From contig CAJINV010000001.1 of the NCBI GenBank assembly GCA_905178155.1, forward strand, positions 16,465,192 to 16,501,155: a stretch of 35,964 nucleotides of DNA, read 5' to 3'. Of this stretch, positions 4,830 through 33,700 are shown in pieces; the first letter of the stretch is position 1, and each line of letters begins with the position of its first letter. The DNA comes from Amoebophrya sp. A120. Its lineage: Eukaryota > Protista > Dinoflagellata. The translations under genes and the position numbers were made by a program. A model generated the notes under the pieces. That model worked only from the letters and a program-made list of their open reading frames with translations, was not told the origin of the DNA and ran no database searches.

Positions 4830-4879
4830 AACATGGACATGCTGATTGGATTCTTCGGGACTTCTCGGACGTACCAGAC

Positions 4880-5533
4880 ATGGACATCCCGACCTGCGTC
4901 GGGCCGGTTTGCGAAGCAAAAGTAGACAGCTTTGCTTGCTGTGCGCGGCTCTGTCGGTCAATGCCGGAAGACACCTGCCAAGGCTACGCCTACGAGCCGA
5001 CTTCGTTCTTCTCTCGTCGCTCGATAGAGAGCGGTGCCATGCAGGATCATGCGACTCCCACCGCCGCCGATGGTGCCGACGATGTCGCGACTAACATCGG
5101 TGGTGCCACTGCGGCGACTAACACCGTTGGTGCCACTGGGGCGACTAACACCGTTGGTGCCACTGGGGACACTAGTGAGCCCGCTACGACTACCGTCGCA
5201 GACGATGCCCCCGACGAAATCGTGCTTGACAAATTCCGTCCCTGCGATCCACCTCTGGAGTGCCTCAAAGAGGTTTGTTGCGTTCCTGAGAGCCAGAAAA
5301 CCGCGAAACCAGTTGTGAACGCAATATTGATGACTGACGACGAAGGGGAAGAGGGGGCAACCAATGATACAAACAGCACCGTGCCGGAAGGAGGTTTCGC
5401 AATCGCAAGTGGCGTTCTTGCCGCTGCTGGTATTGCCGTCGCTGCTGTTGCCGCTAATCCGGAGCTTATGGCAGATAGAAAAGCGCGCCCATGGTTGACA
5501 AAGTTTGTTTTTCGCTCGGGGTTTGTCATGTAA
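4880..5533 (+). CDS. Cys-rich, Thr/Ala-repeat protein with C-terminal hydrophobic anchor (probably the last exon; 5' end unresolved)
   Basis: CCARLCRSMPEDTCQGYAY (PAN/Apple-like Cys spacing), ATNTVGATG repeats, second Cys cluster CDPPLECLKEVCC, hydrophobic GGFAIASGVLAAAGIAVAAVAA. Confidence 0.55.
   Translation: MDIPTCVGPVCEAKVDSFACCARLCRSMPEDTCQGYAYEPTSFFSRRSIESGAMQDHATPTAADGADDVATNIGGATAATNTVGATGATNTVGATGDTSEPATTTVADDAPDEIVLDKFRPCDPPLECLKEVCCVPESQKTAKPVVNAILMTDDEGEEGATNDTNSTVPEGGFAIASGVLAAAGIAVAAVAANPELMADRKARPWLTKFVFRSGFVM
5087..5167 (+). repeat. 27-bp tandem repeat x3
   Basis: gcgactaacaccgttggtgccactggg units encoding ATNTVGATG. Confidence 0.85.
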
Positions 5534-6363
5534 GAGACGCTTGCGCATTTCTAAGCGTTGCTATGGGCCACGCTTTCACCTCAGTGCAAGTTCGTGTCTT
5601 GCACTTAAAATATCTGTAGGAGAACTGAGTCTTTTTGCTACGCGACACGGGCGCGCGTTTCCGTCGGATAGGTTTTGCGGCTGGTGTGTTGGCTGTTAGG
5701 TGACGCCGTGAATACGCTACCGAAGGCTTGGGGCGGAGGCATGGAATCTTTGTCCTATCACATGATGGGAGAAGTGCTCGACTCCGTGAAAATGCTTTCA
5801 GAGTAGGCCAGTGAGAAAAATACCGCAATACCTATGTGAAGTGCAAAGCGTTGCTTGACTTCGTTCACGTTTACCACTGACTGTTTACTTGGTTACAGTG
5901 TCAGTCGGTCCATGTAGAGTCGATTCGAGTTCAGCGACCGCATTTCTCTGTCGTCTGTACCGTTGCTACTTTCCGTTTTTTGAATATGGCAAACGATCTT
6001 GACAAGGTGAAGATCTCCGATCGCACGCACTTCTCTGTGGGTCTCTCTGGAATACCGGATCCGAAAATATGGCTTGCGCACACATGTCTTGACGCAGCAG
6101 CCTGAGAGAAATTTCGGCTGCGACTTCTCTCTCTGTTTATTTTGCGAAATTGTGTGAAGACTGGCCCGAAGAGAATGCAAATTGGAAAGAGTTCTGCGTT
6201 GTTTTGATATGCAATAACTCTTGAAGTGCGAGAGCTTGAATTGGCGCCACAGTATAACTCGCAAGACAAACAGTATTTGCGGCGCAGGTGCAGTAGGTCG
6301 GTTTACCTCGATAAATGTTGCAGAGGCCTTTGAAAACTTGATGACGGAGGAGTTGTGCGACAG

Positions 6364-9300
6364 TGCCTACCCCGGTGCGCGACCTTCTCCTTGGCTTGTC
6401 CCGAAGTAGCGCAGCCACCTCAAATCCGATTCTGGACAACGAGAGCGGTTCCGCGCGAGGTGTTTCTGGCACTGGAAGTAGCGATCATGTGGAAGAAGAA
6501 ACAGTTCCTGGTCCCTCAACATCCACTGGGACTGCTGGCGCAGCGGGCAGTGATATTCAATCTAGTCACGATGAGGTCGTTGCTGCTCCGCAAACTTCAG
6601 CTTCGAATCCAGCAGCAGCTGCAGGAGGTAGTGTTAGCCAAGAGCCGCGTCCGCAACCAGGTTCTAGCGCCCCTTCCGGGGGAGCTTCATCCGGACTGGA
6701 TTCGACTGGCGATGGCGGGGAAGTTGTTCTGTCTAATACCGGAGATTCTCCCACACCTGGCACTGGAGGAGACGTCGGACGACTGGGAGAACATGGAGGC
6801 GATGTGAGTCCGCCTGTCCCTGATGCTCCAGCACGGGGAAGGCGTGGTGTGGAGGACGATGTCCCTTCTATCGGGACAAGCAGGTCGCTGTCGCCACCAG
6901 GCGGACGTCGCCACGACCGCGACGCATCTCCAGATCCGGGTGCCCGTCGCGGCGCGGCTACGGGCGGTGGTGGCGATGACGATAATCACAGCAGTGCAGA
7001 TGATGGTACGAGAAATTGTGATGGTGACGCCCATTCGTCGGTTTGCGGTTATGACGACCTATTTCGAAGGAATGAAGACGATTTTGGAAACGCGGGCTCA
7101 TCTTCTTCCCAGGATGGGAAAGAAGATGATCAACACGAACAAGGAGTTGGCAGCGCGTCTGAAAATGCGCCCGAGCAGCCGACGTCGGAGACCGGGCGCG
7201 GAGAAGAGGACCTCCACCGTAACGCGGCCTCGCCCGCTGGTGCAGCCAATGACAACCGATCAAAACAAGACACTGCTTTCGGCCCTCTTGCCGCAGAGGG
7301 CTCAAGCTCCGCAAGCTCATCTTCGGCACGGCAGGATGCGGCAGGTGGTGTCAGGCAGATTGCTGCCACTGCGCAAGCACAACAAGAAGACGGCAGGTCT
7401 CTCGAAAGCCGCACGGCCAGTTGCGAAGACCTCTACTTGGATGTTCTTCGCGAAAGAGTAGGCAAAAGCAAGCCGCGCGATTATTGGAACACAACTGTGG
7501 ACTTGGGAGCGGACTATTTGCAAAAATTCCAAGAACAAGTTGAGAGACCGCGAGAAGAGGGCGGGAAACGGGTTGCGCCGGATGAAACCGACTGGAGCGT
7601 ATTAAAGATAGATACTTTGTAGTCACGCTCTTGCATTTTCTTTCGAAGCACATTAGGATATAGAATTGAGTACTGGCGTGGCTACGTTTAATTTTGACGG
7701 CAAGTTTTGTTCTACGCGTCTAGTATCAGGAGGAGGAAAAGCAGAAGCTACGTCGATGTACTGTATTAGCCTGTTGATGATATGCAGAACGAAGGCGGCC
7801 GCAAGGGCCTCTACTTTTGACATTCATCAACTGGATATTATTTACAACACCCCAGGTGCGACTTCTCATGACCATGGTGAGAGAAACGTGCAATCCTGCT
7901 ACGGTGTACGAGACGTCTGGCAGTCTTTCTCTGACAATTCCCGCCCTGTATGACTCTGATAAGCTCAAGACTGGATGTCACAAAAGCGACAAAGCGTTTT
8001 TTCGAGAAGTGCTGGATTTTTTCCACGAACAGTCTGTGAGAAAGAAACCACGGAAGCCAGGTAAGAGTCCGAAGACCCGAAGTGTTGTAATTTGGAACCC
8101 GCCAGTGGCCCATGCATTTTTCCGGTACAATGGGAAGACGGAGGATGATACATGTGCTTATGTGGCCCCTGCGGAGTTTGCGAGGCCTGTGAACATGGCA
8201 AGGAATCGGCGACACCGCAACGTGTTAGAAGCGAGGTGCCGTCTGGGTATGGCAACGGAACTGCTCTTCCAGAACTCGTCAAGACTTTACAGTTCGCTGA
8301 AATTTCCGATTAAGCATGGTACGTCTAGTGTGGTGGATGGCTGTTTTATACCGTGGTCAATTTGAAAAATCTGTCTCTGTTTCTGTTGATTGGCTGTATT
8401 TTTTTGACACATACGACTAGCGGAATCTTGTGTACATGTCATGTTCATATTACGCCATTCGGGTTTTGCTGCACAGGTCGCGTCCCGCGATTGATCCGTG
8501 AAGCGCTCTCTATTTGCAGTCCGATTACACCCACACACTCTATGAATGTTCTTTAGCGCTCGTGATCAAAAAGTTAAGCGGCTGTAAGGGTCATTCAGTG
8601 CAAAAAAAATCTGCTTCAGGTTATTGCCTAAGTCCGGAGTTGCAGGAAGACTACCTACGGAACCTGTTTGTTAGCCGTGATCCCTTAAACGAGGATTGGT
8701 ATCCACTTTTCCGGAAAATGTTCCGCAAATTCGCTCGCAAGTGGCGCGGAGGTTCCGATGGAAAAAGCCTGTGCTGGTCCTATGATCAGTTTCAGTGGGA
8801 TTGGAGGACATTCCATGCGAAGCGTCTCCGAAATCTTGCGAAGTACCGGAAAAATCCGTACTTTCGCGCAGAACCTCTCCCGAAAATGTTGGCGGAGGAT
8901 CCAGAACTTTATCTCGTTTCGCGGCCAACGAAGATCGATTACGACTTCGCGGACATCGAAGATTCTCCTACACCTGGCGCTGAAGAAGACGTAGGACGAC
9001 TGGGAGAACATGGACGCGATGTGGATCCACCTGTTCCTCATCCTCCAGCACCGGGCAGGCGAGATGCGGACACACTGCTACACAATGGCACCGGAGGCGG
9101 AGGTTGCTACAACCGCTCCCCATCTCCCGATTCGGATGCCTGTCGCGGCGTGGCTGCAACAGGCGATGGCGCTGACGATAGAGGCACGCACCCCCCACCA
9201 CCGCTACCATACTATTGGATCGGACACGGACCAGGTGCCCTCAGCCGTTCCCCATCTCCTGATTCGGATGCCCCTCGCGGCGTGGCTGCAGCAGGCGATG

Positions 9301-11222
9301 GTGATGACGATAGAGGCACCCGCATATCTGGAAGTGAGAGTGGCGCCGACAAGAGGGGTCAGTTCTTTTCTCTGCTACCGTCAGTCGCTTCGTCAGTCTC
9401 TGAGCATCATCAGGCTGTAGTTCGGCGGCCTCTGAGCAGCCCACCTGCGTTCGGCGGTAGTTCGTCTAGTTCCGCGGCATACATCGCTCCTTCGCAGGGA
9501 GCAAGGCAAACGGCGGCCGTGATCGATAAAGCGACCACGCGAGTCCGAGCCCGACGCCGGCGCCACGAGTCCGACTCCGACTCCGACGATGATTTGCCGT
9601 TGGATGAAGAAGCAGAAGCGAAGGCAGTGGCTTCTGGCGTTGCGACGGTGCAAATGCGGGAAGGATACGGTGCAGAGAGTTGTGAAAATCTGTTTCTTGA
9701 GGTTCTTCGCGAACAGATAGGGGACAAGACGCCGCGTGACTTCTGGAATGTGGATGTAGATCTGGGGCGTGACCGGCTACGGGAGGCAAATGACGCGATC
9801 ATCGCGTCATTTGTCTCCCGTAGCCGGTCATATTCAGCAAATCATCGGATGAAGGGATTTGCTGACGTTTTCCCTGCTGCCCGCTGGAAAGTATCTTTCT
9901 ATTAAAAGAACGATCAGCATCAAGAGTTTCTTATACTTTTGAAACAATCTGGTAGACTAACGACCGCCAGTGCCAGTCGGTCTTACATTTTTAAAATCGC
10001 CATTGGAAAACCTTGAACACTTCACCTGTAGTGATGTCGTGCGTTGTGTACTATGAGTCGCGATGGATTCTTTTTCTCACAAACTTGCGTCTATCAAATT
10101 GATTCCAGGTCTCCACCATTTTCGCGATGATGCCCTTCTGTCACATCGATGTGGCGTCGGGAAACATGGAATACCAGTATGACCAGTGGCCAGCGCGTGA
10201 GGAAATGGTTTACGATTCGGAACGCTTGAGCACTGGGTGCGTTCGCGAGGATAAGGAATTTTTTAAGAAGGTATGGGACTTCTTTCACGAAAAACGGAGT
10301 GCCGGGACTGTTTTCACGAAAAACGGAGTAACCGAAGTCGAGTCCGCGGTTGTAGTTTGGGACGACCCGCTGGTCTACCGCAACGGTGGCCCGAGCCTCC
10401 ACGATGCCGCTGCTCTAATCAGTACCGACACGGAAACCTACCGCAGTTTAAGAGAGCAGCGCTGCCGCATCGGTATGGTGACGGAGCACCTGTTCCAAGC
10501 TGACGTCCAAATAGAGGAGTTCATGGCGCGGTTCCTTATCGAGCCCTATGGTATCACTTGCACAGACATATCAACCTGTGATGGATCTGGAACCTTTTTT
10601 TCTACAAATTCTCAGCGAACTAGTAATATGGCATACATTGATTCAAAATTCTTGATGAGTTTCTCCAATAGGAAAACCAAAAATCTCTAAGCTCCATTGA
10701 AATCGCAATTATGGGATGCGCTTTTTGTCTCCTTACCAGCAATTGTTTGCAAAAATAGTGCCATAAGTATTTACAATTCAGTGGCGTTCATTGCGTTTTT
10801 TCACAGGTTATTGTCTCAGCACCGAATCGCCGAAGGAGCTGAATGAAGAGGAACCGAAGTGGCCCGAGGCCGTTCGTGGACGAATGCGAGATCAACCTCG
10901 GTTAATGTTAACCGACGTCCCTGCTGTGCAGCCTAGATGGCACGCGTATTTCCAACTGGACTTCGAAGACAGAGCGGCTTTCTGGCGGCAGAACTCCGAC
11001 GCCCGGAGCCCGGAGTGGACGTATCGCCATTTCCGGTGGTGTTGGACTAGGGCACGGTCGAAGTCCGTTCCCCACAAGGGCGAAAACCCATTTGCCTTTG
11101 CGAGTAGAGAGTCGCAACGGATGTATCCGGGCTTCAATCCTCGAGACGCGAAATGGGTCGAAAAATTCCAGGCAGTTCTGCAGGACATCAAGCTACCGAG
11201 GATAATCGACTACCGGGACTAG
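6364..11222 (+). CDS. Protein with two tandem copies of domain X, each preceded by a low-complexity linker; join(<6364..7598,7856..8318,8620..9890,10109..10550,10807..11222), about 1275 aa, 5' exon(s) not found
   Basis: Four GT-AG introns with matching phases join the ORFs into one frame (TDWS|VRLL, KHG|YCL, ARWK|VSTI, PYG|YCL). The same junctions recur in the paralogs. Confidence 0.8.
9112..9320 (+). repeat. ~75-bp direct duplication within the linker (about 9112-9187 and 9245-9320)
   Basis: RSPSPDSDACRGVAATGDGADDRGT versus RSPSPDSDAPRGVAAAGDGDDDRGT, near-identical DNA. Confidence 0.85.
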
Positions 11223-13067: not shown

Positions 13068-16000
13068 ATGGGCGACCGGCGCAACCACCATTTCGAGCCC
13101 AACGACAATCCCCCACGACCCGCGATTCCATCTGACCAACGTAATTTTAACCCTCACCATCCAGATCCGCACGGTGGCATACAGCCTCCATGTGGAGCTA
13201 CTAATGCCGGCCGCGACTTAGCAGAGCCGGGTAACAAGAATAGACGCTTCGAAAATAACCGTGCGCGCTTCGTCCAAGAAGAGCATGACGTACCCAGCTA
13301 CCCTTTACCCGTCGCTCCGGTTCCCACGCAAGCAACGTCGGCGTTGCATACTGCGACCACATTCGATTTCGAACCGAAAGTTTGTCATGCACCGGCCGCA
13401 AATGCGGGAGCCGACGTGGGACAACATACACCGGGAGAAGGTGTTCGAGAAAACGCAGCCTATGAGTGGCAAGCGGCACGAGATGTGGTTGGCGGGCCAC
13501 GTGACCCTCGCGCCCATGAACGAAATAACGCGACGTCGTACGACGGCACAGTGAACACCACTCTGTGCTCCGCCGGTAATTATGGAAGCTCGTACTACCA
13601 GGAGCAAAACGACGCCAGGAGGCCAGCAGCGACAAGCACGATTGAAGATGATGTAGCGATATTAAGAAGCGATGTAGGTGGTGGAGCTCCTCCTGCGCGG
13701 CGCCCTGGCCGCGGCCAAGTGCAAATCCGGCCTGCGGCGACACGAGATGACCAATTTTCGTCCTACAATCCGAACAGGGAGACCGAGAGCTCTTATTCCG
13801 TGGCTGCTCCCAGGGTCAGACATGTTGACCATGCGGGCCTCACTGATGCCTATCGCGACAACAGGCACGATTCCCGCACAGCCAGAGGGCGGCTGGAAAA
13901 CAGAGAAACCAGTTTCGAAAGCAATGCCGACTGCGAAAACGGTGACACACAGCCCGCCGCACCGCAGGAGCGACACCAAAATGCTGGCCAGAACGACCAG
14001 CAGCCTCAAGGACTGCAAGACTTCGTCTACCAGGCGGATTTGCCAAAGGTTGCTGTGGTTGGCATATCAAACGGTAAGAACGAGTTACAGCGAAACGTGG
14101 AGCCAGTGCTTCACCAGAAGGAAGAGGCTCAGCTTCTAGCTGAAGCGGAGAATTATGGACGTCGCGGTTTTCATATCAGAAATCCTCGTGACACTACCAG
14201 CTCTGGAGGGTGCAGCCGCGACATCAAGGCCGACAACCGCAACAACGCGCCAGTCGCCCCGGAGGACTCTGCGCCGACAGCTCCCAGACGCGCGGATCAA
14301 AAGGTCGAGACTTCTCCCGCGCCTGATGGCATCCTCCGCGGTGTTTCCGATCGCCGTTCTTATGCTGAAGTTCCTGGCGATGCGAGTCCTGCGAACAACA
14401 TAAATGCGCAGAACCAACATGCGCCTGATGCTATAGTTTCTACCTCCGCGGCATGCAGCACGATCCCCGTCTACGGGCGCCACAACGCCCCTTTTCTCAA
14501 CTCCCCGAGCGACCTACCGGAGTATTTCAACGACGAGGACTGCCGGACTTCGTACCAGGAAAATGATTCGTTACTCTCCACGGCTGCGTTCATCCAGCGG
14601 AAAAACATCGCTGTGACCGCCACCGCCCGCGTTGGCCCCGGCATGGTCATCTGCATGGGCGAACAGGTGGTTGACAACCATCACGTGGACTTCAACAAGC
14701 CGACTTTATTGCTCGAAGTTGTGAAGCGGATCGGGAAGGGCGGGTCGGCGGAGGTGTTCGAGTGCGTGGATTTGCGAACTTGTGTGGTAGACGGAGGATC
14801 GACTACGACGGCTTCGGGCAGTCGTGGCAACAATTATAGCTGCAATTACGAGGACGCGTCGCGAAGTGGTCGCTTTCAAAGCAGCAGCAAAGGTCGCGAC
14901 AGGGAGATGAAATCTTCTCCGTTACCCGCCACCCGATATGCGTTGAAAGTCGTTTACGCTCGGGACGCGAGGCAAATGCGTTCGTTTGCCATGGAGGTAA
15001 ACTGGCTCCGGGCTTTACGGGACAAAAATCGCGCGAGCGCAGGGGGCAATGGCAATGCCAGCCACAACGCGGACGAGCTGCGGGTAGTAAAGATGATCGG
15101 GGAAGCGAAATTTTTTCCGAAAGACCTGGTGATCCACATTTTGCTGGAATTCGCGGACTGTGGTATGGAAGGGAAGCGTTTGTGTTGGTTTGAGTCATAA
15201 TGTATTTTTGTGATGCGGAATGAAACATGGACAAGATGCAGCAGTGGGGGAAGTTTACTCCTAATTTCTCATGCGAGTGAACCCGCAGGCGCAACTGGAT
15301 GCAATTTTCAATATATCAATTTTTGTACCGCATCTGCACTACAACTAGAACTGGTTGTTCAGCAACTGAAGCACCTTCTTTCCCCTCCCATACCCAACCT
15401 TCATTCCTTCCTCCGGAAAAACTACGAAATCTTCTCGATTTACGACATCCGCAACCTCTGGCGCGACATGGTCGCGGGCGTCGCGGCCATCCACAGTCTC
15501 GGGTTGATCCACTTTGATCTCAAACCCGCGAATTTCCTCATCGTGGACAACATCGTGAAGGTCTCTGATTTCGGCCTCGCGAGAGGGATCAATAAAGACG
15601 AGGGAATCACCCATGTCTCCCGCGATCGCCAGTGCGGCACGCCGCGCTACATGCCACCTGAGGCGTTCTATCAGCCGGATGAGGGATCGGCGAGTTTGAA
15701 AATGCGGCCAGCCGCTGACGTTTGGGCTTTGGGGATCATCCTCTACCAGTTATTGTACGGTCGGGCGCCGTACGAGCATTTAGAGGGGTGCGGGATGCGG
15801 GCGCAGTTCGCCGTGGCGGATTCCCGGGTCCGGATTTTGTACTCGAAATCTCGGCGGTGGGAGCAGCAAGACGCGGCGTTATTCGGCCATCTGGTGTCTC
15901 TGCTACAGGTCACGCTGCGGTGGCGTTGGGAAAGGCGGTGGGACGCACAGACGGTGCTGAAGTATTTGGAAATGGGAGATGAGCAGTACGATGCGAATGT

Positions 16001-19000
16001 TCAGCCATGCCAAGCGACCATCAAGAGAAAGAATCAAAAGCTGCTGAAAATGCCGAAAAACCTTGTCAATGAAGAAGACACGAAGGGAAAAACGACGAAA
16101 TGGGAGGGCCATCGGCTGTCAGACATTTACGAAGAGGAATTTATCGAGCAAACGTCGTTGCCGTTGCTGGCGAAACAAGAGATGAACTACTCCTGCAACC
16201 CGACTTCTCTCGGCGCTACGGGTGCGGAGCAAGCAGAGCTATTGGCACGACGACAGGACGGACTTGGAAACCTGGATGATGGCGGCGGCGCTACGGGCCA
16301 AATCGAGAAGGAGGTGCTGGAGTCAGGTGGTGAAGAAAAGAAAATGAGAAGCGACAAAAATATCCGAGATTTCGCAAATGAAGTAGCAGCAGAACACGAG
16401 CCAGAGCTGGCATCGTCCTCGGAGGAAGAGCATGAGTTGGATGAAAATGCTGAGAAAGGTTTGGCATTGATGATGTCGCAGCAGCAGCAGCAGGTGCAAG
16501 GCGCCGCTTCCGAAGATTTTGCTTTGGAAAACAACAAAACAGCATCGCTAACTTCTGCAACACAAATCTTCGACACCGGGCAGCGAGACACGACACCAAG
16601 TTTTGCACGTGACGATAATGAGGAACCGTCGCAAGAAGAAAAATTTCATTCCATGACAGAAGATCCCTCTTCATCATCGACATCTTCCACTCTATCTCCT
16701 TGCGCCGCTTTCCTGGCCTCATCGCTCTCAACCATCATCATCACCATCATCGCTGTTTGTCTTCTCGCGGGCGCTACGGGCTTGGCAGTCCATATGGGCA
16801 ACGTGAGCGAGGGGAACAAACAGAAAGCAGAGCTGGGATCTTCAGGGGACGGTGATGAGTATCCGTTTGGCGGCTTCGGCGGCGGGCATAAGCCGAACAT
16901 TTTAGTCCCGACGAGAATCTTCAACGGGGATGGAGGTGGGGGTGGGGGAGGCGGGGGTGGTGGCACTTCACCTGGAGGGAATTCCAGCGGTCGTCCACCA
17001 ACAGGTCTAGGAAATGATGGTCTGGGCGGGAATTCTTTGCAGCAACCAGTTCCTCCTGCGAGTTCTTCATCGGGCGTGGTGAGCCTCTTCCCCCCGGGAC
17101 CTGTTTCCCGAGCAGAGTTTCTAGCGCCGGCGAAACCAAAACCAAAACCTGCAGCGCCGACGGGTGGTGCGGCAGCGCCAAAACCAGCACCGGTTGCTTC
17201 CGGTTCTGCTACACCGGTTGCAGCTTCTGCTGCACAGGTTGCAGCTTCTGCCTCCGCCAGCCCACCAACAGTGCTTCCCGCTGCGACGGTGCCAGCTCAA
17301 CCGGCAGTTCCTGTTGAACCGAGTGCAGCAAATCTTCAATCACCTACAACTGTAGCTGACCCGGAAGCTCAAGCAGGTCAAGCAACACCTGAAGCTGATC
17401 CGGCATCGGCTGCCCCGTCTGGTGCGTCATCATCTCCTGTGGAAGGTGGCGGGGCAGATGATGCAAGTGCCCTCGCAGCGCACGAAACAACAAGCAGCGA
17501 CTCAAACCAGTCAGCACGGCAAACGCCTGAAGGCAGCGAACACGAAGGTGCGCAAACTGATGAAGCTTCTCGTCAGGCGCAACAAGAGAACAGCCCAGCA
17601 GCTGCTAGTTCAGCTCCACAGCTGGAGGAACAGCAAAGGGAACTATCTTCGCGAACTGAAACGCAGGCAGGTGGTGGTAGTTCTGAACAATCGTCCTCCA
17701 CTGGAGATACTATCGGTTTGGCAAGTGCTGGAGCTGACCCGTCTGCAGCAGGATGTACTACGGGCAGTAGTGTTAGCGATCCCGGTCCTTCCGCTTCAGC
17801 GTCGAATCTGAGCCATGACGGCGGTGTGGATCAGCTTGCTCGGGTTCCTGCTTCAGACACAGTGAACGGAGATCAAAACCCGCGGGAACAACGTCAAGGT
17901 CCCGAAGGTAGTTTATCCTCCGCTAGTGCCAGTACGACGAGTCCACCCCGTCCGCCCCAGGATGGTGGCAGCAGCGATGGTGCCGTGCCTGCAGCGCAAG
18001 AGGGAACTGGTGTTGGAGCAAGCGGCTCAGCATCACAAATTGGCTTGTCTGAAAGCGTATTCAGAGGGGAACAAAGTGCGACACCGCGCTCACGAAGTCT
18101 GAGCCCTCCAGGTTCGATTTCACGAAGGTCATTTCGCACAGCGAGTCCCGAAAGACGCGGAGATACAGGATCAGGAGGTGTGCCGTCCGATGTTACAGCA
18201 GGAGGAGCTGCTGGTGCTGCAGCCCCGACCGGCGGAAACCCACCGCAGCCAGGTGCGGCAGCGCGGGACGGCGGCAGTGGCGCAAAAGCGACATTTGAGA
18301 GGACCGGCACTCCAAATCCCGGAAGTACCGCTTCTGGTGGAGGCAGCTCTAGCGCTTCATCCTCTTCCATTGTCACTATTCCTGGCGCAGCAACTGTCAG
18401 TGGAAGTCCAGCGATACGCCCTCCGCCAACGAGGCTAGCCGAGTTACAGGTGGCGTCGCTGGAGGAGCGGCAAACGGAGACGGTGAGCTGTGAGGACCTG
18501 TTTGTGGAATTTCTCGAAGAGAAGCTGCAAACTGTCGAGAACGGAGCGATGGCGGGATACAAACCGAAGGACTTCTGGAACGCTACTGTAGATCAAGGTC
18601 ATACGCAGGGAAACAGAAGAGCGCTTGTCGCACTCCCATCCGCGTCAATATAATACTTTAGCATGATGAGCTAAAAATCATTTTCATTGTGAACCAATGC
18701 TCAGCCTGTATTCGTAACACAGCAGGGTATTCGCGGTCGCACAACAACCTGACGTGAGCTTTTTTCGATTGTCGTGCGGCAGGGTTTCATAATTGTTCTG
18801 TAGCAAGATGAGTCTGAGGCCAAGAAAGAGCCCATTTCATGATTTTGGCGCGGCGACGACTGTTTCTCCGCATAGGCGAGGATCTTTTGGGGACGACTAA
18901 TGAGACACTCGCCAACATTTTGCCGCCGTTGGGTGCACTTGATGGACACACATGGAAGGTATTGTGAGTATCGATAGATTAAGTATTGGCAAGCAAACGT

Positions 19001-20634
19001 GCTGCGTTTTTGCCGTGCTGAGCAGTTTACCTTCGCGTTTAGTGTTGTTTACTACAAGGTGCACACGCAGGATCGTGTCTTGCGTACTTTCTGCTGACCA
19101 TGAAGTTGTGAACGACGAAGACACAAAGCCTCTTCCATATGTATGCATGTATGAAGTGAAACTCGAATCAATGTCTGAAAAACGACTTGACTTACAACTT
19201 TACGTACGAATACACAGATCTTAACGATTATGGCGCTGATGCCGTACTGCTATGCCGATATCGCGACTGTCCGAATCATGTACGGAAGACTTCTAAAACC
19301 AGCGATGCAGGACTATAGTTCAGAGCGGTTGAGCACGGGATGCGTGCGGGGCGATAAGGGGTTCTTTGCTGCGGTATGGGACTTTTTTCACGAGCCTCTC
19401 AGAACGCGTCCCACTGAAGAAGCTGTGGCCAATGCTCTGGGAAGCATTGCTACCGAGCCAATCCAGCGGCAGGGCGATAAAGTGGTGGTTTGGGACGATC
19501 CAGCCATCTTCAGAAATCCTGCCTACCGTGCCGAATCGGATAGTATGAAGCGCAAGCAAGGCGAAGGCGACCTGGTTCAGTCTTGAGTTAATATACAACA
19601 AGCTTTGCATGAACGTCAACGTGATCGGCATTACTCTAACTGAGAATCCCTGGGGAGGTAAAAGCGCAAATGTAGCAACGCACACAAAAAGAACCCAAGT
19701 GTAGCTTCATGAGGCTAAAATTCTTGGCAACATAAACATTCATGTGTGTTCATTGATTCAAGTGCACCAGCACTTGAGATCTTTGTGTGATTCTCTGCAA
19801 CTCTGGACACAGGCATCATACGCCTTATCTGCCCATCGCGATAGAGCACCCGTTAGCCCGGCAGTCACGACAGCAGCGGTGCCGCATTGGTATGGTTGCG
19901 GAGTACCTGTTTCAGGCCTCAACTGTGGTTTCCTGCTACTCTGCGATCTTTTTTCGCGTTCCCTACGGTACGTTTTCAATTTGTTGGTCCTTCTCCTCAA
20001 CGCACGAAATTTGTCTTGATTAATGAGATTTTCTGCCATGACCAAGGACGCAGACATGACAGTGATTTCGCTCCTTTGGTAAAGAAATTTCTGATTGTGA
20101 TTTTCGATCTGTCTTCCCATTTTCAAAAATAAATGGTGAACAGGTTATTGCCTGAATACGAGACCGAAGTTGCAGCTTCAGCAAAATTGGCCAGAGCGCG
20201 TTCTTGCTGAGAGGATTCGCACACCCGAGGATGAATCACCGATACCGCCGGACTGGCATCACAAATTTCAACTCGACTTTTACCGACGTGCAGATTTTTG
20301 GCGCGCGCGGTCAAATGGTATTGGGCCGGAGTGGAGTTATCGCCACTTTCGATGGAAGTGGTTAATAAATCAGTGGTTCGCAATACCAGGATCGCGAAAC
20401 GGGCTCGACAGATTGATTTTTCACTCGGCGGGTACGGGTAGGGATCCGGATCCGGTTTCGGGAAGCGACTGCCCCGTCCGCGACCTTTATCATGATTTTC
20501 ACCCCAGAGAACTCAGCAGCGAGCTCCGTGAAATTTTTGAAGAATTGCCGACAGAGCCGATCAACGTTAACGTCAGGGAGATTGAGGAGTCATCTGACCC
20601 TGGTTCCTCTTCTTCTGATGATGAATCTCCATGA
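13068..20634 (+). CDS. MPS1/TTK-like protein kinase fused to a TM helix, S/A/P/G-rich stalk and C-terminal domain X; join(13068..15161,15396..18597,18819..18958,19218..~19542,~19845..19967,20144..20634), about 2100 aa
   Basis: Kinase motifs IGKGGSAEV, YALK, E of alphaC (FAMEVNWL), HFDLKPANFL, DFG, GTPRYMPPEA, DVWALGIILYQLLYG. DLKPANFL and YMPPEA are characteristic of the MPS1/TTK family. Hydrophobic segment at about 16704-16790. Domain X exons match the paralogs. Boundaries of intron 4 are uncertain. Confidence 0.8.
15162..15395 (+). mobile_element. Putative non-canonical intron / introner-like element with terminal inverted repeats
   Basis: Starts ggtatggaagggaag and ends ctttcccctcccataccc (imperfect inverted repeat). 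Contains an in-frame stop. Removing 234 nt restores a normal hinge, LLEFADC|NLHSFL. Confidence 0.65.
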
Positions 20635-21784: not shown

Positions 21785-24019
21785 ATGCCAGTGGCGCGTT
21801 GCACTTTGTGGGAGAAGATGGTGGCATTGGCTTTATTGCTGCTCCCGTCGCTGATGCAACTTTATTATTGCGATGCTCGCGAATATGCCACGGCAGGGAA
21901 GCCGCCAATCCTGTATTTGAACATCCTCTCGGGGGATGATCTGCTTCCAAAGTCCAAGCGAGAAGCGCCGCAAGGCGAGAAATGCGACGCGGACTCATCC
22001 CAAGCTGGCTGCCGCGCGAGTACGACTTCTCTCGAACAGGCGAGTCGAGATGCAGGTATGGAAGTCGGTGCTTGTAGTGATATTGATAGTGAAACAGGCT
22101 GCGTCAGTGAGTTTTAAGGAAAAGAAGACGGACAACGTCGACAAGAAGAATTTATTGAACTTGAACAAAAACTTCCGCAGGTATCACATCGCACCCTCCT
22201 GTGTCCACACGAAATCCGGCAGGGAGCAGCAATGATGAAATATTGCCGCGTTTCCGATCACGGACGAAGAGCCATGGGTCGAGGCACGACGGAAAGGCGT
22301 CTACACTACGTGAAGTTCTGACGAAGAAACGTCGAAAGCATAAGCAGCGGGCCTGCATGAAAGGCGAACAAGCCAATGCAGGCGAGAATCGACTTCCTAC
22401 CGCTAATCCCACGGATGCTGCAGTGCAACACCAAGAAGAAGGAGAACACAAACATGCAGCTCCGCGTGCCTCAAGGCCGGAGTCGAAGCTGAATTTGTTG
22501 GATAGCATCAGAAATTCGGAGGACGGGTTGATGTTTTCGGGCAGTAATGTTCTTAACGACAGGAAAAGTGACGGAATTCTAAGTTTTCTCTCTCCGAAGG
22601 ACGTGGCTTCAATGTTTATGGTAAATAAGTTGCATTCGAATACCGACGAATTTGGTACAAAAGTAGCGTCTGCTGCTGCCGTCCAAGCTGAGCAAGACCG
22701 CTCCCTGGAAAGCCGAACCGAAAACTGCGAAGATTTATTTCTTGAGGTGGTGCGGGAGCGGATTGGAAACAGAAAGCCGCGGGACTATTGGAATCCCCAG
22801 GTCGATGGCCATTCTGATTTCTTGGCGAAGTTCCAGAATCGTGTGGAACCGAGAAGAAGGAAACAGATTGCCAGCGAGACCGACTGGAGCGTAATTACCT
22901 GTTTGTTGCACATGACCAATCCAACGCTATGTCCACTCGATAGAAGCAGAATTGGAGATCTCGCCCATAATTTACCCTGTTTACTTCCTTTGAAAAAGTC
23001 ACACGCTCCGAATCTAAAATTTGAATAGGTACTGTTGTTGATGTCGATGGCGGCCGAGACCTGTAGTCCCCTCAGATCCTACAGCACCAGCGAAAACGGG
23101 TCCGCGACCTTGCAGGATAGGTACGCGTCGGAGAACCTTCAAAAGGGTTGCCATGCGGGTGACAAGGATTTTTTTCGCGAGGTTTTGGACTTTTTCCACG
23201 CGAAAGTTTCACGGTTGGATCGTACGTCCGAGAGGGGAAGACATGTTGTAATTTGGAATCCCCCGCAGGAGGCCAATGGATTCAATGGAACTTTGGCTGC
23301 GCGGGCAATCGCGAGTAATCCCAATCGGGACCTCTTGGATAGCAGATGTCGACTTGCAATGGCAACGGAGCTCCTCTTTCAGAGACACGCGGTTGTCTAC
23401 GACACACCCTTTTTCTTCGTGAAGCATGGTATATATTTGTTTGCTCGCTCACTATCTTCATCCCCCACCCTAAACAGCTAGGAAAAATGCCTCACTGGTG
23501 ATTTATCATTCCAAGTGCATTTTATTTTGATTACTCCTAGGAGCGATTCCCTCATCGCGCCGAACGACGTCTGCAAATGCGACATAGCTTCATGCTGGTC
23601 GTTGCAGAATGGTGAGTGTACGATGAAAATCTGCATGACGCAAGAATTCAAGAATAAATTCAATAATTTTGATGGTCACTTCAGGTTACTGCCTCAATTC
23701 GGATCCGGACGCGAACGTATCAGACGTCGAAGACGAGTATTCCAGACAAGACCCCATTGACGCAGCTTGGTATACGTCTTTTCGGAGGCTGTTTCGCACT
23801 TATGCGCGACAGTGGAGAACAGAATCAGACGGCGTCAACCTGCGTTGGTCGTATGATCAATTCCAATGGGACTGGCGAAGCCATCATGCCGCACGGCTAC
23901 AGAACACTTCCTATTATGACACCCGACGTAAGGACGATCGCAGGCCGCCACGTATTTTGGCCGCAAATCCGGGCGAGTTTTCAGTTGTCATTCCCACTCG
24001 CGTTAATGTTGAGATGTAG
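21785..24019 (+). CDS. Secreted single domain X protein; join(21785..22055,22181..22890,23029..23428,23685..24019), about 571 aa (alternative start ATG 21818)
   Basis: Signal-peptide-like MVALALLLLPSLMQLYYCDA; three phase-consistent GT-AG introns; domain motifs closest to copy 1 (SLESRT.CEDL, KPRDYWN, ETDWS, WNPP, WSYDQFQWDW). Confidence 0.8.
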
Positions 24020-25542
24020 CTTCCAGTCCATCGGAAAAAAACGCTGACATTGCGGAAGAAAGTCCAAGTTCTGTAGATGCCTGGGCATAATTTCTAACAG
24101 GTCGCAGTAGGATACGTGTTGCCACGGCTCGCGCTGGCGCTCGCAGGGCTGGGCATGAAGAATTGCGAGCGCCGTGGCGAAAATATACACTGCTCGTAGA
24201 TGTTACGCTCCAACAAGAATAGAAGTACTTATTGTCGAGCCGTGTCTTGAATGACGAATAGAAGAAGTTGTCCCTGGCTCGCTTTGTGAATTTTGTACAA
24301 TTTTAGCTTGACTGTGGCAGAAACTCCAAGTCCAACTGACATAGATATTCCCTTTACAATAATCTGAAGAAAAAATTATGTGAGCTCATGGTAATGAAAG
24401 AGAAGATGAAGACCGCTAAGGATCCGTAGTGATTCGCGTCGGAAGTTTCGGCCGCTTTCTTTTTTTGCCGCCCTACTCCTTAATGTACAATTTTTGCATG
24501 ATAGATAGGCTCTGAGGCTGCACGAGAGCCATACTTTGCTGATGTAGTGAATAATGAAACTACCCTGCAGCCGCGGAGAAGTCGATACGTCGTCTTCTAA
24601 TCTTTGACTGGGGTATGGAACCTATGGTGTTTGGCAGGTGACGCCAAATGATGATGGATTACGTCAGCAAGTGGAAAAGTTTGTACCTCTAAGTGTTCGA
24701 AAAAAGACAAGTGACTTTCTAAAGTCCAAGATGAGTTCGGAAAAATTACGAGGGATGCATGAGTATGAAATAAGTCGTGGTGCTGAGGCAAATACTTTGA
24801 CGATGATCGTGGTGCTCATTCAAAAAACGGCAATGAATAAGATCGTGGTGGTTTTTGGAAAATACAGATCTGAAATGGATATCAATGTCGCTCAGTGGTG
24901 GCAGAGAAGCACGGGTCAGGAAAGTACATATGTATCAACTCAAATAATACGACTGCAAAATGTGGATCATGGTATTCGTTCGTTCCCTAGATGCAAGATC
25001 GCATTTCTATTCTACCGTGAGCTCAACCGCCCTGCCTTTTTTTAGTTTCACTTCCTTTTCCATGATGGATGCAAAATTTTGTCAGGCGAAACCGCTTGCG
25101 CTCTTCGTTGAACTGAGTACGAATAGTATATCCAAAAGCGTAGTATTTGGTCTTTATTTTCCTCGCTAGTTGTAGTTTTAAAGGTAGTCCTAGTCCTTCA
25201 TTGTGGCAATACTAACTAACTAACTATTCCCGACATTCAAAACAAAGTAACATAGCAAAAAAATTGTGAAAGGCCGCTCGTGTGAGTGTGTGAAAGGGTG
25301 TGTCGCCGTTAAGTACGTGTCTCTTTCGTCATTCTCAACGACAACGCATGTTTGATACCAGGAAAAGTAAGATTAAGTTTAAGGTAGGCAATCCAAATCT
25401 CGTGTCAAGCTTTGCAGAAGCGAAGTATATCTTGGCGCAGCCAACTACAAAGAACACGAACATGAACAAGATTAAGACTGACAAACATCTGAAGATGCGG
25501 CTGCAAGATTCCACTATTTCCTTCAGTGCCGGAACACCAAGG

Positions 25543-28500
25543 ATGCTCGCCAGGCGTCTTTTTTGCCTCCTCCTTGCTTTCGTAGGGCAAGCCACGGCAT
25601 CCCTGCTGTCTGCGGCTTCCTCAAGAGGGCATGCATTGGCTCGTCCGTGGCTAGGCAAAGCCTGGGAAAAAATGAAGTGCGGCGCAGGCGTAGAGAGACT
25701 GTGTGAAGAAAGATTGGATTTGCTCGTAAGCCTTCAGAGACGGCTCCTGATAGCGCCTCGGGTTACATCGCGCTCCGTACCGGAAGACGTCGCGGATGAT
25801 GTCATGTTCCACCTGGTGACAGTTCTTGGGACGCAACTTGCGAATTTGGATTTGGGTAGGGATGTCGCTGGGCACCCAGTCAACTTCACCTTGCTCAAAA
25901 CTCGTGCTTCGGTGGAGGACGTGTTCGAAAAGATTTTTGGCAGAATCTGGAGCTCGGGCGCGGCAGACAGCGAAATGCGCCTCGAAAAATGGAAAGAGGA
26001 CCTAGCGACATGCCGTGCACTAATTTTCGATTTCGATCATGGGCCGAACCAGAGCATTTTTATCGAAAGCGAGCAGATTGTACTCACGGCCACCTGCATG
26101 GGTAATTATATATGATTATTCTAGTTTACTTGATGCGATAGGATATCTGCGACCTGTGCATACATCTCCCAGCATGCCTTTCTGCAGTGAGCGCGACGGC
26201 TTGGGCTTTTTGCGGCGTGGGATGAATATGAAAAACGCTCAATGAACTGATTTATTCGGTTTCAGTAGCAGATGTGCATGTTTTTAGCCAGATCCGCTGC
26301 ACTCTTCAGGCCGAATAACGCTTCTGACTACTGGTGTGCTGATCCGAATCATGCCTGCAAGATGAAGATGGAGCATGTGTGCGTGGATTTTGTGGGAATT
26401 CGTTGAAATATATCACTCATCGTCATCTTTCTATCGTGCGCGGATCAACAGCGTAATTTTCCTTATCGTTGCGAAATTCCATATTACAGGCCTCGGACCT
26501 AAGAAGTGGGGACAAAGCCTACTGCAGAACATCAACCCGAGGGACAACTCGCTGCGGAGCAAACAGATTCGCTACTGCCGCTTGCTGTACGTTATGTATT
26601 CAGGGGTTCAAGGCTCGGGAGAGGAACAAGAACGGCAGGGCGGAAGCCGCAGTTCAGGTCTCATGGAAGGGCGTTTGCGACCTATCGATTACCTAAGTAG
26701 GACAACCATAACGGAGCGCATGAACGAGGCAGCACCAATATGCGACATACCAGATGGAGTGATAAGTACTGGATTAGTTATTTTTTCCTGTTGCAAGAAC
26801 ATCCAATAGACCTTGATTTACTTTTGAGAGCAGTACTCCTGAATAGTGAAATCACCAGCGTAAGCCCGTTGTGTTTGTTGGTTGCATCAGTATGTAGTAA
26901 GTTTTGCCGCCTGTGCTCATGATAAATGAAGAGAAAATCTAATTCAAAATCGCAGACGATGCTGCAGCTAGTGGCATCGAGCCCCATATGTTCCTTGTTG
27001 AACTCGGCGTGTCTTTCCCGGATGGATCTTTTACTACTGTGTCGCCCGCTTTTCCTGTGTATCCCCTCCATGGTCACACCGAATTGCGGCTGCGGATCCA
27101 GGCAGCATTGGAAGGCTATACGCAGAGCAGGAGGAGTAAGAACTTGCCGAGTATTCCCTATGGGCGAGCGACTGGATTTCGTCTTGTTGTCCAGCAAGCG
27201 GCCCGCAGCGCTCTCGGCTATGCCCCTTCTTGGTTTATGGAGTCTACCAGGGCAGGCGAATGGAATGACTCGACAGGCATGCAGCGCTTCTGGGCCCGCG
27301 GAAGCGCAGGTCGCAGATCTGCGCCGGTGGAGGAAGAAATTCGAGAAAGGCGTCAGCGTCCAACGCGGGAGAGCAGGGCGGGCATCCCGAATGAAATTAT
27401 TTACGCACTATGCAGCACTTCTTCCATGGCGGGACTGTCAATTTCGCAGCGACCACAGACACGAGACGGCGTGGTTCACTATCTTCGGATGGAGCTTGAA
27501 GTAGAGGGTGGTGGTGCTTTAGAAGGAGGAGGAGCTACAGGTACTTCATGGTCGTTGTAAATCACACTAGGGCTGTTGATCATTTCTATTCGTTGATGGC
27601 GAGGCCATGGGGTTTTGTCCGCTAAGCTGTCTAGGCAGTCCGGACAGCTGACCATCGAGCTTTGAAGACAGATACATACAAGACGGAGAGATCAAGGACT
27701 GAAACGTCCTTGCATAGCCCGCGAAAAGGAAAACAGAAATTGGCCATTGTCTTTATGTAAATATACCAGGTTCGATTGCGCCATCGGACCCGCCTTCCGG
27801 ATCGGACGGGTTCGGGGGTACCGGACCTAGACCACCCCGCCGGGGACCTCGAGATAACCACGGAAATGGATCTAACGCACCACGCGACCAACCAGCTTCC
27901 ACTCATACTCCCCAATTGGGAAATTTCCAATCCCCCGGACAGCCGCAGTCGTCTATGATGGTCGAGTTAGATCTTCTGAAGTTCAATTTCATCGGGGTAA
28001 TTAACACAAATTTCACGCAGAGCGAGTATCTTGCGACATGGTGGAATCCAGAGGGGCAATGCATCAACGAAGAGCAAGACCCAAGCATTTTTTCCGGCAG
28101 CCTGTGCACCGACGAAGAGTTGCAAGATTCGCCCTACTGCAAAAGGATTGCTCCTTTGCAGCCACTGGAAACGCATATATTAGATAGTCCTGGCGTGCGG
28201 GATGTCTGCCGCGCGAATAGCACCACTAGGTTCTACGATTTTACCTCCGGCTTCGACCCTGCTCGCCGTCGTCCTGACGGGGCCCTCCCCCTCACGACGA
28301 CGGCTACCATGATGCCTACCCAGGTACGAAACCTGTTTTGCCTACAGCTTCGTAATTCCTGTAGGATAATTTGGGCTTGGTTGAATTGTTGTACAACTTG
28401 TACTTTTGCTTTACATTGATGTATATCATTCGCTGTCGAAGAGCTAAAAGAAGCTCGTTTTACCTCGTCTTTGCTCTCTGCGTGGAGCCACGCGACCAGT

Positions 28501-30762
28501 GCGTGCACGAGTGGGGACACAACGTTAAGTAGACAAAAAGGAGATGGAAGAAATCTCTTGCGGTTTCAGAATCAGAACCGAAGTGCATACACTTGCAAAT
28601 CGGAAATCCAAATCAAAACTACAAAACAGCAAGTCATGGTTACGAGAGTCCCAGCAAGCGATGGAAATGCGCACGGCCTTGGGATCGTCGCTGCATACAC
28701 CCCCCTGCCTACTGGTCTGAATTACATCCGTGAGGCCGACGGCAAGGAGTACACGCCTCGTGAGTATGAGGCGGGGCGCTACGCGGTACTCAAATATCTG
28801 CTGCTGAAGCTTGCGTCCTATGTTGAAAAGGAGGTGAAGAACCCGAGCCGTTTCCTCTGGCACGGCGAGCCGGTTCGTGATGTCCAAACCGAGTGGCCGG
28901 ATCTGCTTCAAAACCAGCGCAAAATAATCGAGCCGGGAATGTGGTTTGTGGCGAGTCGCATGCATGCTTTTCTCAGAGCGGCGCAATTGATAAATACCGC
29001 CGTGGCCAGGATAAGGGAGGGGTCCCAGGTTTTGCCTCACGGTGCTCCTCAACAAGCGCAAGAAGCGAACACGCAACTGTCTCCCACAATGCCGGGCGCG
29101 GTTCCCCAAGGTTCGTCTTTGGCTGGCGCTGCAGTGGGAGGCGTAGCTACGGAGAGCGCTGCAGCGATGGACACTGCCACTTCTGAGGATGAGGGCGAAG
29201 ATGGGTCAACAGGCAGTGGAGACGGTCCGGGGGGTGCGCCTCAGGTTGCCGACGAAGCTCTCCTCGCTCAGACACAGGACCGAACCTTGCTGGCCAACAA
29301 CCGCGTGGTGCATTTTGTTGGCAACTGTGCCCAGGTCTGTCTGCAAATTTACACCGACATGGGTGGCACCGGCGTTACAACCGATCTGGCGTCCTCCCTG
29401 CTACCCGAGATTCTGCAGAACATCTCGGTGATCGCGCAGGTCGTGCAGCGACACCTCGCGTTGGCCAGTCGAAGCCTCCGCACGATCTTGCAGCTGCTAC
29501 TGCTAGTCGCAGTGCTTACGCGGACCACCTTCACAACGACCCCGACCGGATTCAATCTGCAGTTTAACGGCCCCGCCGCAGTGCCCACCTCCCTCGCCGA
29601 TGTCTCATCTGGGGGTGTCCTCATCGTGAAGGACATGGGCATGCTGTCTTGGGAAAGGCGGCGGGCGGCGTCCCGGCCCGCGGCCCGCCGTAAGAAATCC
29701 CCCGTCCGATCGATCAAACAAGCCTCCACGATGGAACAACCGCGGCCGCAGCCCGTGCTGTCGCAGTACTGCCTCGCGAATGGCCAGCCGGGGGCGAGCT
29801 ATTGCACGGTGGGAGATATTGATAAGGCCGCTTGTTGCAGCGTTTCCGGGGACATGTACGCGACGGGCAAGGAAAAATGGTGGTCGCACGAATTCAGCAA
29901 CACCTCCTTGCGCGTCACGATCGCGGCGCCGACCTGTGAGCCCGCGCTTTGGTCCCACCTGACGGACATCGTTGGCGCACAGGTGCTGCAGCACGCAAAC
30001 GACGCTGGCACCGCGCGTGCCATCACCACGGCCGTGCGGGAACACGGGTTGTCCCCGTGCGAAGTGCGCATCAACGACCGGTACGTACGGGAGGCTGAGT
30101 ACTGTTCCGCGAAAGGCGACGAGCACCAGTTCGTGTACTGTCCGCAGCCCGGCAACGGGGCCAAGGAGTGCATTCAGCGTCGCGTAGTATCCGAGTATGC
30201 TGCTGGGACTGACAGGGGCGTCGTGGGGTCCCGGTGGGCCACGGTGGAAGGCGAGCCTGAAAAGTGCGATGGCTACGACCTGGAAGAGCTGGGCCGCCGG
30301 CTCTCCAAACTGTCGGTGCAGAATCGGCCAAAGAGGTGCGTCGACGGGGAGCTCCAGGTGCTCCGCACCCTTGGTGGTGATGGAGGTGGCGATGACCAAA
30401 ACCGCGACGAGGGTGTGCGGCGCGGCTTTGGGAAACTGCTAGCCGAGGTGTCCAAGAAAATTTTCCCGTGGTCCGCGCAGCAGAGAACGACGCCGTCCGA
30501 GCCAGAGCATGTTCTCCATCTCGAGCGCAGCTACCACTCCGCGCAGGTGGACAAGCGAGAGCAGTGGAAACAACGCGAAGCAGCGGAGGCAAAGCTTTTG
30601 CGCAAACAAACGGGAGGACGAACAGTTCGGGGACAAGACCGATCGCAGCCGGATAGAGGCACGCGCGGGCGAAACGCTTCTAAGCGCGACACGAGAGGTC
30701 AGCGGCGCGGGAAGAAAAGCTGGAAAAAGGTCCTGAAGCCCGGCGGGGAGAGAAAGAAATAA
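25543..30762 (+). CDS. Large multi-exon secretory-pathway protein, divergent HAP2/GCS1 (fusexin)-like N-terminal half; approximate exons 25543..26101, 26142..26186 or 26216, 26288..26376, 26490..~26690, 26956..27540, 27770..28323, 28630..30762
   Basis: Signal peptide MLARRLFCLLLAFVGQATA; most junctions are GT-AG and phase-consistent; several motifs occur in HAP2 order; basic C-terminal tail. The gene's existence is well supported; the family call is tentative and rests on recalled sequences. Confidence 0.55.
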
Positions 30763-32539: not shown

Positions 32540-33700
32540 GCCCATGACTCGCAACCCTCTAATAGAATTGATAGCCGGAAAACTTCCCCGGAGACCTTCG
32601 GGGGACAGAAGCGCGATAATTTGGCAAACGAAGAGCCTCTGAAAAGTATTTTTCGAAAAGTGCATCTGAGGCGCATCTGAGAGCTAGCGTTTGAAAAGTG
32701 AAAAATCAGTGATTTTTCACTTTTTCAAAATTTTCTGAAGTCGACGGAGCGTGCAACTCTTTCCAGGTTGACAAGTTTCGAAAAGTGGAAATCATTTAGA
32801 AGTGAAAAAGCACTGACTTTATTCTACTTCTCAATGATTTTCATTCCGGAAGAGTGAACGCGGCCTCGACTCGCGAAAATTTTCAAAAAGTGAAAAATCA
32901 CTGATTTTTCACTTTTTGAAAAGTTTCACACACTCTGAGAAACGCGGCTACGACTCCAGAGTGAAAATTTTCAAAAAGTGAAAAATCAGTGATTTTCACC
33001 TTTGAAAAATTTTCATTTTGGAGTTCAAGCCGCGCTCACCCTTCTCAGAGTGAAAATTTTCAAAAAGTGAAAAATCACTGATTTTTCACTACTTTTCTCG
33101 AAGGTACCCGTGGTCTCGAAGGCCTCCGTGGCCACGGGTACCTTCGAGAAAAGTAGTGAAAAATCAGTGATTTTTCACTTTTGAAAAATTTTCACTTTTG
33201 AGGCGAAGCCGCGTTTCTCAGAGTGTATGAAAATTTTCAAAAAGTGAAAAATCACTGATTTTCCACTTTTGAAAAAATTTCACTTTGGGGCCTCGACTCC
33301 AGAAAATTTTCAAAAAGTGAAAAATCACTGACTTTTCACTTTTGAAAGATTCCCACTCTGGAGGCGAAGTCGCGTTCACTCTTCCCAGAGTGAAGCAAGG
33401 CCGTCGGGCCGGTGGGCAAGTTTGTGAAAGCGCCTCGCGCTGCTCTTCCGCGATTTCTTAACTACTTATGAGCGAGCTGTAGGAGGCCTTGAGTTAATTT
33501 GGGCAGCGGCTCCTGTTCATGCGAGCAAGCTGCAGACTTGCAGTGTCCCTCCGATCCTCGCACTGTTGGAAAGGCTTTTTGAGTCTCAGACGAACGAAAA
33601 AGCGCGCGCAAACTATCGAACTTGCGCGATTTTTGTCCCTCGAAGGCGTCCGGAGAAATTTTCCGGCGAAAAGGAAGGGGCTTTTGCGAGTCATGTTTAA
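32540..33700. repeat. Subtelomeric foldback (large imperfect inverted repeat built from palindromic modules), centre about 33122
   Basis: 51-bp perfect arms at 33063-33113 and 33132-33182; repeated module aaaagtgaaaaatca(g/c)tgatttttcactttt; outer matches such as catgactcgc (~32544) with gcgagtcatg (~33686). Confidence 0.85.

Follow-up and report, generated by a model that had tools for sequence, protein, structure and literature searches.

An MPS1-related kinase with a predicted membrane helix, a long stalk and a C-terminal domain X in Amoebophrya sp. A120

The dual-specificity kinase MPS1 (TTK) acts in mitosis and is known to be soluble and, in most cases, encoded by a single gene. A stretch of 35,964 nucleotides from contig CAJINV010000001.1 of Amoebophrya sp. 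A120, a syndinian dinoflagellate that parasitizes other dinoflagellates (hereafter the window, to which all coordinates refer unless another locus is named) carries at 13068-20634 a gene whose predicted product joins a kinase related to MPS1 to a membrane helix, a low-complexity stalk and a C-terminal region here called domain X (Table 1). Sequence comparisons, structure searches, phylogenies and RNA contigs were used to describe this gene, its relatives and the possible roles of its product.

Structure and transcription of the gene

Table 1. Parts of the kinase-domain X gene and the evidence for each
Part	Position	Strand	Evidence
Start codon and low-complexity N-terminus of ~546 aa, without signal peptide or Pfam domain	13068..14705	+	Frames, Pfam, hydropathy; exact RNA contig 14369-14557
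Kinase N-lobe with inserts, end of exon 1: GKGGSAEV Gly-rich loop, Lys in YALKVV, alphaC Glu, hinge LLEFADC	14706..15162	+	
Predicted hinge intron, 234 nt, GT start, non-AG end	15163..15396	+	12-nt terminal inverted repeat; 3' end uncertain by one codon
Kinase C-lobe: HFDLKPANF, DFG, activation-segment Thr, GTPRYMPPE, DVWALG	15397..15980	+	Pfam, PDB matches, alignment
Acidic low-complexity linker, ~250 aa, kinase to helix	15981..16730	+	Frame; RNA contigs here 96-97% alike (paralog)
Single predicted transmembrane helix	16731..16790	+	Hydropathy only
Ser/Gly/Ala/Pro-rich stalk, 560 aa, 4 N-glycosylation sequons	16791..18470	+	Exact RNA contigs over 16995-18598
Domain X start, end of exon 2	18471..18597	+	
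Intron, 278 nt, GT-AG	18598..18875	+	Joint in RNA contigs X1, X2, X4
Domain X exon 3	18876..18958	+	
Intron, 259 nt, GT-AG	18959..19217	+	Joint in X1, X3
Domain X exon 4	19218..19542	+	
Intron, 305 nt, GT...GC; its end reads as non-canonical and the frame is preserved	19543..19847	+	Joint in X1, X3
Domain X exon 5	19848..19967	+	
Intron, 176 nt, GT-AG	19968..20143	+	Joint in X1, X3
Last exon: domain X end, acidic tail, stop	20144..20634	+	RNA continues to 20905

The first 1,770 residues are encoded by two frames in the same phase, 13068-15197 and 15201-18653, with a single stop between them. The downstream frame holds the kinase C-lobe, one hydrophobic helix, the stalk and the start of domain X, and its segment 15396-18596 comprises 1,067 codons without a stop, versus a maximum of 300 in 300 shuffles, which bears out the uninterrupted reading frame from C-lobe to domain X described in the first-pass annotation of this DNA. 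The spliced model is 2,104 aa long and open to the stop at 20632-20634; its parts follow in the order disordered N-terminus, kinase (residues 551-892), helix (about 1144-1163), stalk and domain X (from about 1729), with approximately 940 residues C-terminal of the helix. A hydrophobic N-terminus is absent from the upstream frame (best Kyte-Doolittle 12-mer -0.1), consistent with the disordered start without signal peptide noted earlier.

The strongest helix, at 16734-16790, has a Kyte-Doolittle (KD) score of 2.62 and is the only 19-mer region of at least 1.5 in its frame. On a rough insertion scale it is also the single membrane-like helix of the whole model, the next segment being 6.5 units less favourable, in agreement with the one hydrophobic helix previously reported. 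It should be noted that helices and signal-like starts were judged by hydropathy. The stalk (S 16%, G 15%, A 15%, P 11%, T 6%) has the low complexity and roughly the 550-aa length first ascribed to it, but is poorer in Thr than the earlier label 'mucin-like' implies.

Four runs from one sample (X1-X4) were read as RNA since their contigs show spliced joints; contig depth was not taken as copy number or expression level. These contigs confirm the four 3' introns and join the stalk to domain X on one spliced transcript. Besides the exact contigs over the N-terminus and the stalk (the latter as overlapping pieces from different runs), an exact contig at 16643-16760 shows that the helix is retained in the mRNA and not spliced out, and a contig at 15672-15935 differs from the window at one position. 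The earlier suggestion that kinase and domain X share a transcript is thus borne out for stalk and domain X; among the RNA contigs of this sample, no single one links the kinase of this copy to its domain X.

Longer RNA contigs over kinase and linker (15767-16672 and 16138-16672) carry 23 and 20 differences and therefore come from another copy. Two further runs behave as DNA, each with ~350 short contigs, two thirds of them 90-99% alike, stacked on the kinase-helix part. In addition, a paralog diverges from the window at 17161, a point that RNA contigs 17009-17342 and 17107-17564 cross, and P0153, a kinase fragment labelled A120, is 98% identical to the window kinase. Together, the DNA contigs, the paralog split and P0153 argue that the kinase-helix unit exists in near-identical copies.

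The predicted intron in the kinase hinge has its GT at 15163 and is without an RNA joint. With its end at 15396 it restores the hinge spacing E-x-x-x-x-D-hydrophobic present in 21 of 22 relatives; the alternative end at 15393 likewise preserves the frame. Non-canonical introns are given as more than 60% of all introns in A120 in the part of the source consulted, which also describes A120 introner elements with terminal inverted repeats such as this hinge intron carries (PMC7789003). The non-canonical intron is probably why annotation missed the gene. The canonical 278-nt intron has a 15-nt imperfect terminal inverted repeat (18602-18616 / 18860-18874) and is introner-like as well.

Affinity to MPS1 and the wider kinase family

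Pfam identifies the C-lobe as Pkinase (E 1.5e-29), and a profile of the family from which the window sequence had been left out recognizes the N-lobe with 53.6 bits (E 1e-15). The N-lobe exon alone has no PDB sequence match, and its single-sequence model, with a predicted local distance difference test score (pLDDT) of 38, is of no use. All catalytic features are present, namely the Gly loop, the Lys, the alphaC Glu, the catalytic Asp, DFG, PE and the subdomain IX Asp. Among 2,324 matches in a PDB search the top ones are all TTK (102.8 bits), followed by PLK3 (60.3); TLK2 scores 56.8. Likewise, the window kinase scores 209 on the canonical-MPS1 profile, 119 on the bacterial and 83 on the PLK profile, and the canonical-MPS1 profile outscores the other two in all 21 rows of the clade to which the window kinase belongs. 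The MPS1-family signatures that had been read from the sequence are thus supported. Its catalytic loop, HFDLKPANF, is non-RD, and two activation-segment Thr align with the activation-loop and P+1 Thr of TTK, which we take to be T676 and T686 in human numbering (PMC5863767).

The final phylogeny (40 rows, 283 columns, LG+G4) has a thin outgroup of eight rows without a TLK row. Fragments, near-copies and long branches were removed before each of the two trees subjected to the approximately unbiased (AU) test, 24 rows in the earlier tree and 25 in the final one. The window kinase pairs with P0026 of Amoebophrya A25 (100/98). Both lie in a clade of 18 rows (80/91), whose sister is the canonical MPS1 group (99/97 for the latter). 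The branch that unites this clade with canonical MPS1, to the exclusion of PLK, bacterial kinases and one CAMK-like row, has 100/99 support, in line with the grouping first proposed for this kinase. A quick mixture-model tree of 63 rows gives the same groupings (97, 87, 99). The final AU test rejects a union of the clade and the bacterial kinases (p-AU 0.011; 0.071 in the earlier, thinner test), and nesting of the clade with dinoflagellate MPS1 is not rejected (p-AU 0.076 in the final and 0.11 in the earlier test). On sequence evidence, then, the window kinase is MPS1-related, and the best trees place it beside canonical MPS1 rather than demonstrably within that group. Beyond its position nearest to MPS1/TTK by PDB search, profile and tree, it shares with that family the non-RD HxDLKPANF motif, both activation Thr and a long disordered N-terminus. 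It differs in having DFGLA and HFD where MPS1/TTK has DFGIA and HSD, in lacking a recognizable kinetochore-targeting domain, in its distal membrane helix with a large region beyond, and in belonging to a sister clade that evolves fast and has multiple paralogs per genome.

The closest relatives are found in Amoebophrya A25, A120, AT5.2 and Ameob2, plus unnamed marine records. The clade comprises 21 proteins, four of them too short to test for a distal helix; of 33 canonical MPS1s, 24 are long enough. A helix of KD at least 2.3 lies ~280-540 residues past the catalytic loop in 13 of the 17 testable clade proteins. Among the remaining four, one has a weak helix (1.79) and three have none, one of these being a partial model whose paralog has a weak helix further on. 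By the same measure no canonical MPS1 has a distal helix (0/24, none above KD 1.55). Eighty metagenome loci divide into four of clade type, 43 of canonical type (0/43 with the helix) and 33 of bacterial type. Further MPS1-like genes with a helix, which the first-pass annotation had suggested seeking, therefore form a family, and a membrane-anchored MPS1 offshoot in Amoebophrya and unnamed relatives is well supported at the level of predicted proteins. Divergent paralogs occur within single genomes, for instance the window gene, P0147/P0029, P0206 and P0153 in A120, and P0027, P0146, P0202, P0207 and P0230 in AT5.2.

Within the protein set, between 20 and about 700 residues follow the helix. 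This part is unrelated between members and mostly without a Pfam match; the tail of P0036 gave no result in an ESM Atlas search. An F5/8 galactose-binding domain after the helix of P0146 was not counted; it may come from a merged gene model because the transcript-derived P0028 stops 25 residues past the helix. The loci L043 (1-12319) and L051 (5219-11995) hold three tandem, intron-free clade kinases with a second helix ~130 residues after the first. Beyond the second helix, two of them have ankyrin repeats and the third has a RING-like finger, recognized by eye. Both ends of these proteins would be cytosolic, which therefore fits a kinase on the inner side of the first helix.

Domain X, its stalk and the adjoining genes

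Domain X spans ~350 residues and occurs in four copies in the window. A profile of these four pieces matches seven proteins, all labelled Amoebophrya sp. A120, and no domain-X locus was found among 379 metagenome candidates. Among the A120 proteins domain X is often arranged in tandem with stalk-like spacers, and because the distal stalk of the window kinase resembles such spacers (46-61% identity to those of P0021 and P0025), the comparison suggests that stalk and domain X arrived as one module. A fused kinase-X relative was not found in a search of proteins of 1,886-5,000 aa (17 weak matches), a negative of little weight. Domain X has no Pfam family, no PDB sequence match and no usable ESM Atlas match (best 0.84). 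Its model, built from seven sequences, has a pLDDT of 60 and a predicted TM-score (pTM) of 0.70, and Foldseek gives no match for it at E<=0.001; the best VIA score is Z 4.4, for a helix pair. As modelled, domain X is without a family or fold assignment, and is not thereby a new fold.

Two of the other genes in the window carry domain X. A stand-alone gene at 21785-24020 begins with a signal-like N-terminus by hydropathy, in agreement with the signal peptide earlier attributed to the neighbouring paralog, and corresponds over 21785-24000 to P0019 in each exon, intron-free segments agreeing at 99% and 95%; this match fits an origin of the DNA from A120 or a very close strain. An adjoining gene at 6345-11222, whose 5' end was not found, reads stalk-X-stalk-X with two tandem copies; a 61-nt near-perfect hairpin (95%) at 9770-9830 lies about one of its exon-intron borders. 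At 4832-5533, a Cys-rich frame with Thr/Ala repeats ends in one hydrophobic helix and basic residues; through a candidate GT donor at 5530 it might be spliced to this downstream gene.

Possible roles, and other features of the window

Since the protein lacks a signal peptide and 1,140 residues precede the helix, the latter would be a signal-anchor with the N-terminus inside. This orientation is the default in membrane-protein biogenesis for a helix so far into a protein without a signal peptide, and a kinase-first topology is the default reading of the window protein. We see about an even chance that this protein is a kinase-first (type II) receptor-like kinase driven by clustering, with the kinase cytosolic and the stalk and domain X across the membrane; from the predicted sequence, a receptor function is plausible. 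The helix shares a reading frame with stalk and domain X, and all three are transcribed; removal of the hinge intron would place an intact kinase on the same mRNA. By analogy with human MPS1, domain X, held out by the stalk, would then make contacts that cluster the kinases and switch them on. The available part of one study describes human Mps1 as activated by clustering, with forced dimerisation bringing back activation-segment phosphorylation (PMC5863767). Clustering is favoured as the switch because a flexible linker and stalk could transmit it, but could hardly transmit a conformational change. The C-terminal module may have been gained by shuffling, through which the multi-copy kinase-helix unit would have been joined to the stalk-plus-X of an expanded A120 family. 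The membrane in question would most likely be that of the parasite surface, or a secretory one that faces the host.

The lack of a signal peptide in the window protein and the signal-like starts of two or three of the seven domain-X proteins favour a domain X outside the cytosol. Several observations weigh against a receptor. The 250-aa linker and 560-aa stalk leave clustering as the sole route of coupling, and the charges around the helix (no Lys/Arg before and two after, in 20-residue windows) do not favour an inside N-terminus. Four of the seven domain-X proteins are without a signal-like start (P0021-P0023 look 5'-incomplete and P0025 has a Lys-rich start), whereas P0019 and P0024, and weakly P0020, have one. 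No joint from N-lobe to C-lobe or from kinase to stalk is present among the RNA contigs. Finally, the region past the helix is not conserved, being 20 aa in P0027, 25 aa in P0028 and made of unrelated domains elsewhere, and the shared family trait would therefore be anchoring, not sensing. This last point leads to the main alternative, rather less likely than a receptor, in which the helix tethers an MPS1-type mitotic kinase to the nuclear envelope, the endoplasmic reticulum or a structure at the spindle pole, with a luminal part that has a structural role or is carried along as a passenger. Dinoflagellate kinetochores are attached to the envelope, and yeast Mps1 acts at the envelope-embedded spindle pole body. 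Consistent with such a tether, two members are in effect tail-anchored, C-terminal parts vary freely, dinoflagellates are described in the part of the source consulted as having closed mitosis with an extranuclear spindle (PMC11453091), and the AU tests leave room for nesting with dinoflagellate MPS1, so that the clade might be the lineage's own MPS1. However, the dinoflagellate-type canonical MPS1s are without the helix, and several divergent paralogs per genome with large shuffled C-terminal modules would be unusual for a housekeeping mitotic kinase.

It is improbable that the fusion of kinase and domain X arose recently as a chimeric copy with little function, or that kinase and stalk-X lie on different transcripts. 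Many DNA contigs 90-99% alike over the kinase-helix part and few over the stalk, together with the almost identical fragment P0153, the detection of domain X in A120 only and the lack of an RNA contig spanning the whole gene, would fit such a history, but the long open frame crosses the junction, the catalytic motifs are intact, and exact RNA contigs derive from exon 1, helix, stalk and domain X. A cytosolic domain X, reached by reversed topology or a cryptic second pass and yielding a membrane scaffold whose ends both face the cytosol, like the L043/L051 proteins, is least probable of all. Relatives with two helices exist, P0025 lacks a signal, and the helix-bearing frame upstream of the stalk-X-X gene might be spliced into it, yet no second helix is present in the 2,104-aa model.

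Plant RLK/Pelle, animal RTK/STKR and protist transmembrane kinases typically begin with a signal peptide and ectodomain, plant RLK/Pelle and animal RTK having a TKL or TK kinase at the C-terminus, whereas the window protein is kinase-first, belongs to the MPS1 branch and has neither at its N-terminus. VRK2A and DMPK isoforms are kinase-first with a C-terminal, tail-anchored helix; P0027 and P0028 resemble them, and the window protein differs in the length of its region past the helix. Exactly one predicted helix separates its kinase from the large module that follows, and C-lobe to domain X lie in one frame. The bacterial eukaryotic-like Ser/Thr receptor kinases PknB, PrkC and StkP share the N-terminal kinase, single helix and variable C-terminal module, which is extracellular in bacteria, and PknB-type receptors are dimerisation-activated according to the part of the source consulted (PMC4601284). 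The window kinase differs from these in being non-RD, in its far higher score on the MPS1 profile and in the rejected bacterial grouping, and the likeness is best read as convergent architecture. Single-pass transmembrane kinases of plants, animals and protists diversify by adding different non-kinase domains, as a survey describes (PMC10463195). A wider and more tentative proposal, which we think somewhat doubtful, is that syndinian parasites made their own receptor-kinase class from an MPS1 duplicate, with the kinase first, one helix and swappable outer modules, in which clustering reports host contact; it would be convergent on the PknB layout, and the window would show a new ectodomain being grafted.

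The family of membrane-anchored MPS1-related kinases is apparently undescribed so far. A literature search, with most subscription journals and supplements outside its scope, found no description of membrane-tailed MPS1-type kinases. TTK, Mps1, alveolate and dinoflagellate are absent from the main text of the protist transmembrane-kinase survey (PMC10463195), as is the word 'kinase' from the text of the A25/A120 genome paper, and the supplements of both might list such genes; the accessible part of an infection transcriptome paper does not mention MPS1-like membrane kinases. An expanded, membrane-anchored MPS1 offshoot in abundant marine parasites is unexpected whether it serves as receptor or tether. 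A receptor would represent another independent origin of receptor kinases, with an uncommon kinase-first layout and a handle on the sensing of algal hosts, and an envelope tether would offer a molecular entry to the mitosis of early-branching dinoflagellates.

The remainder of the window holds two long frames without a Pfam match at 27718-30762, the second of which (780 aa) is Cys-rich with hydrophobic stretches, and a DUF285 repeat protein at 716-2416 (Pfam E 3.5e-94), from a family known best from bacteria. At the window end, 32690-35091 contains inverted repeats nested within one another and a tandem duplication of 640 nt (89%).

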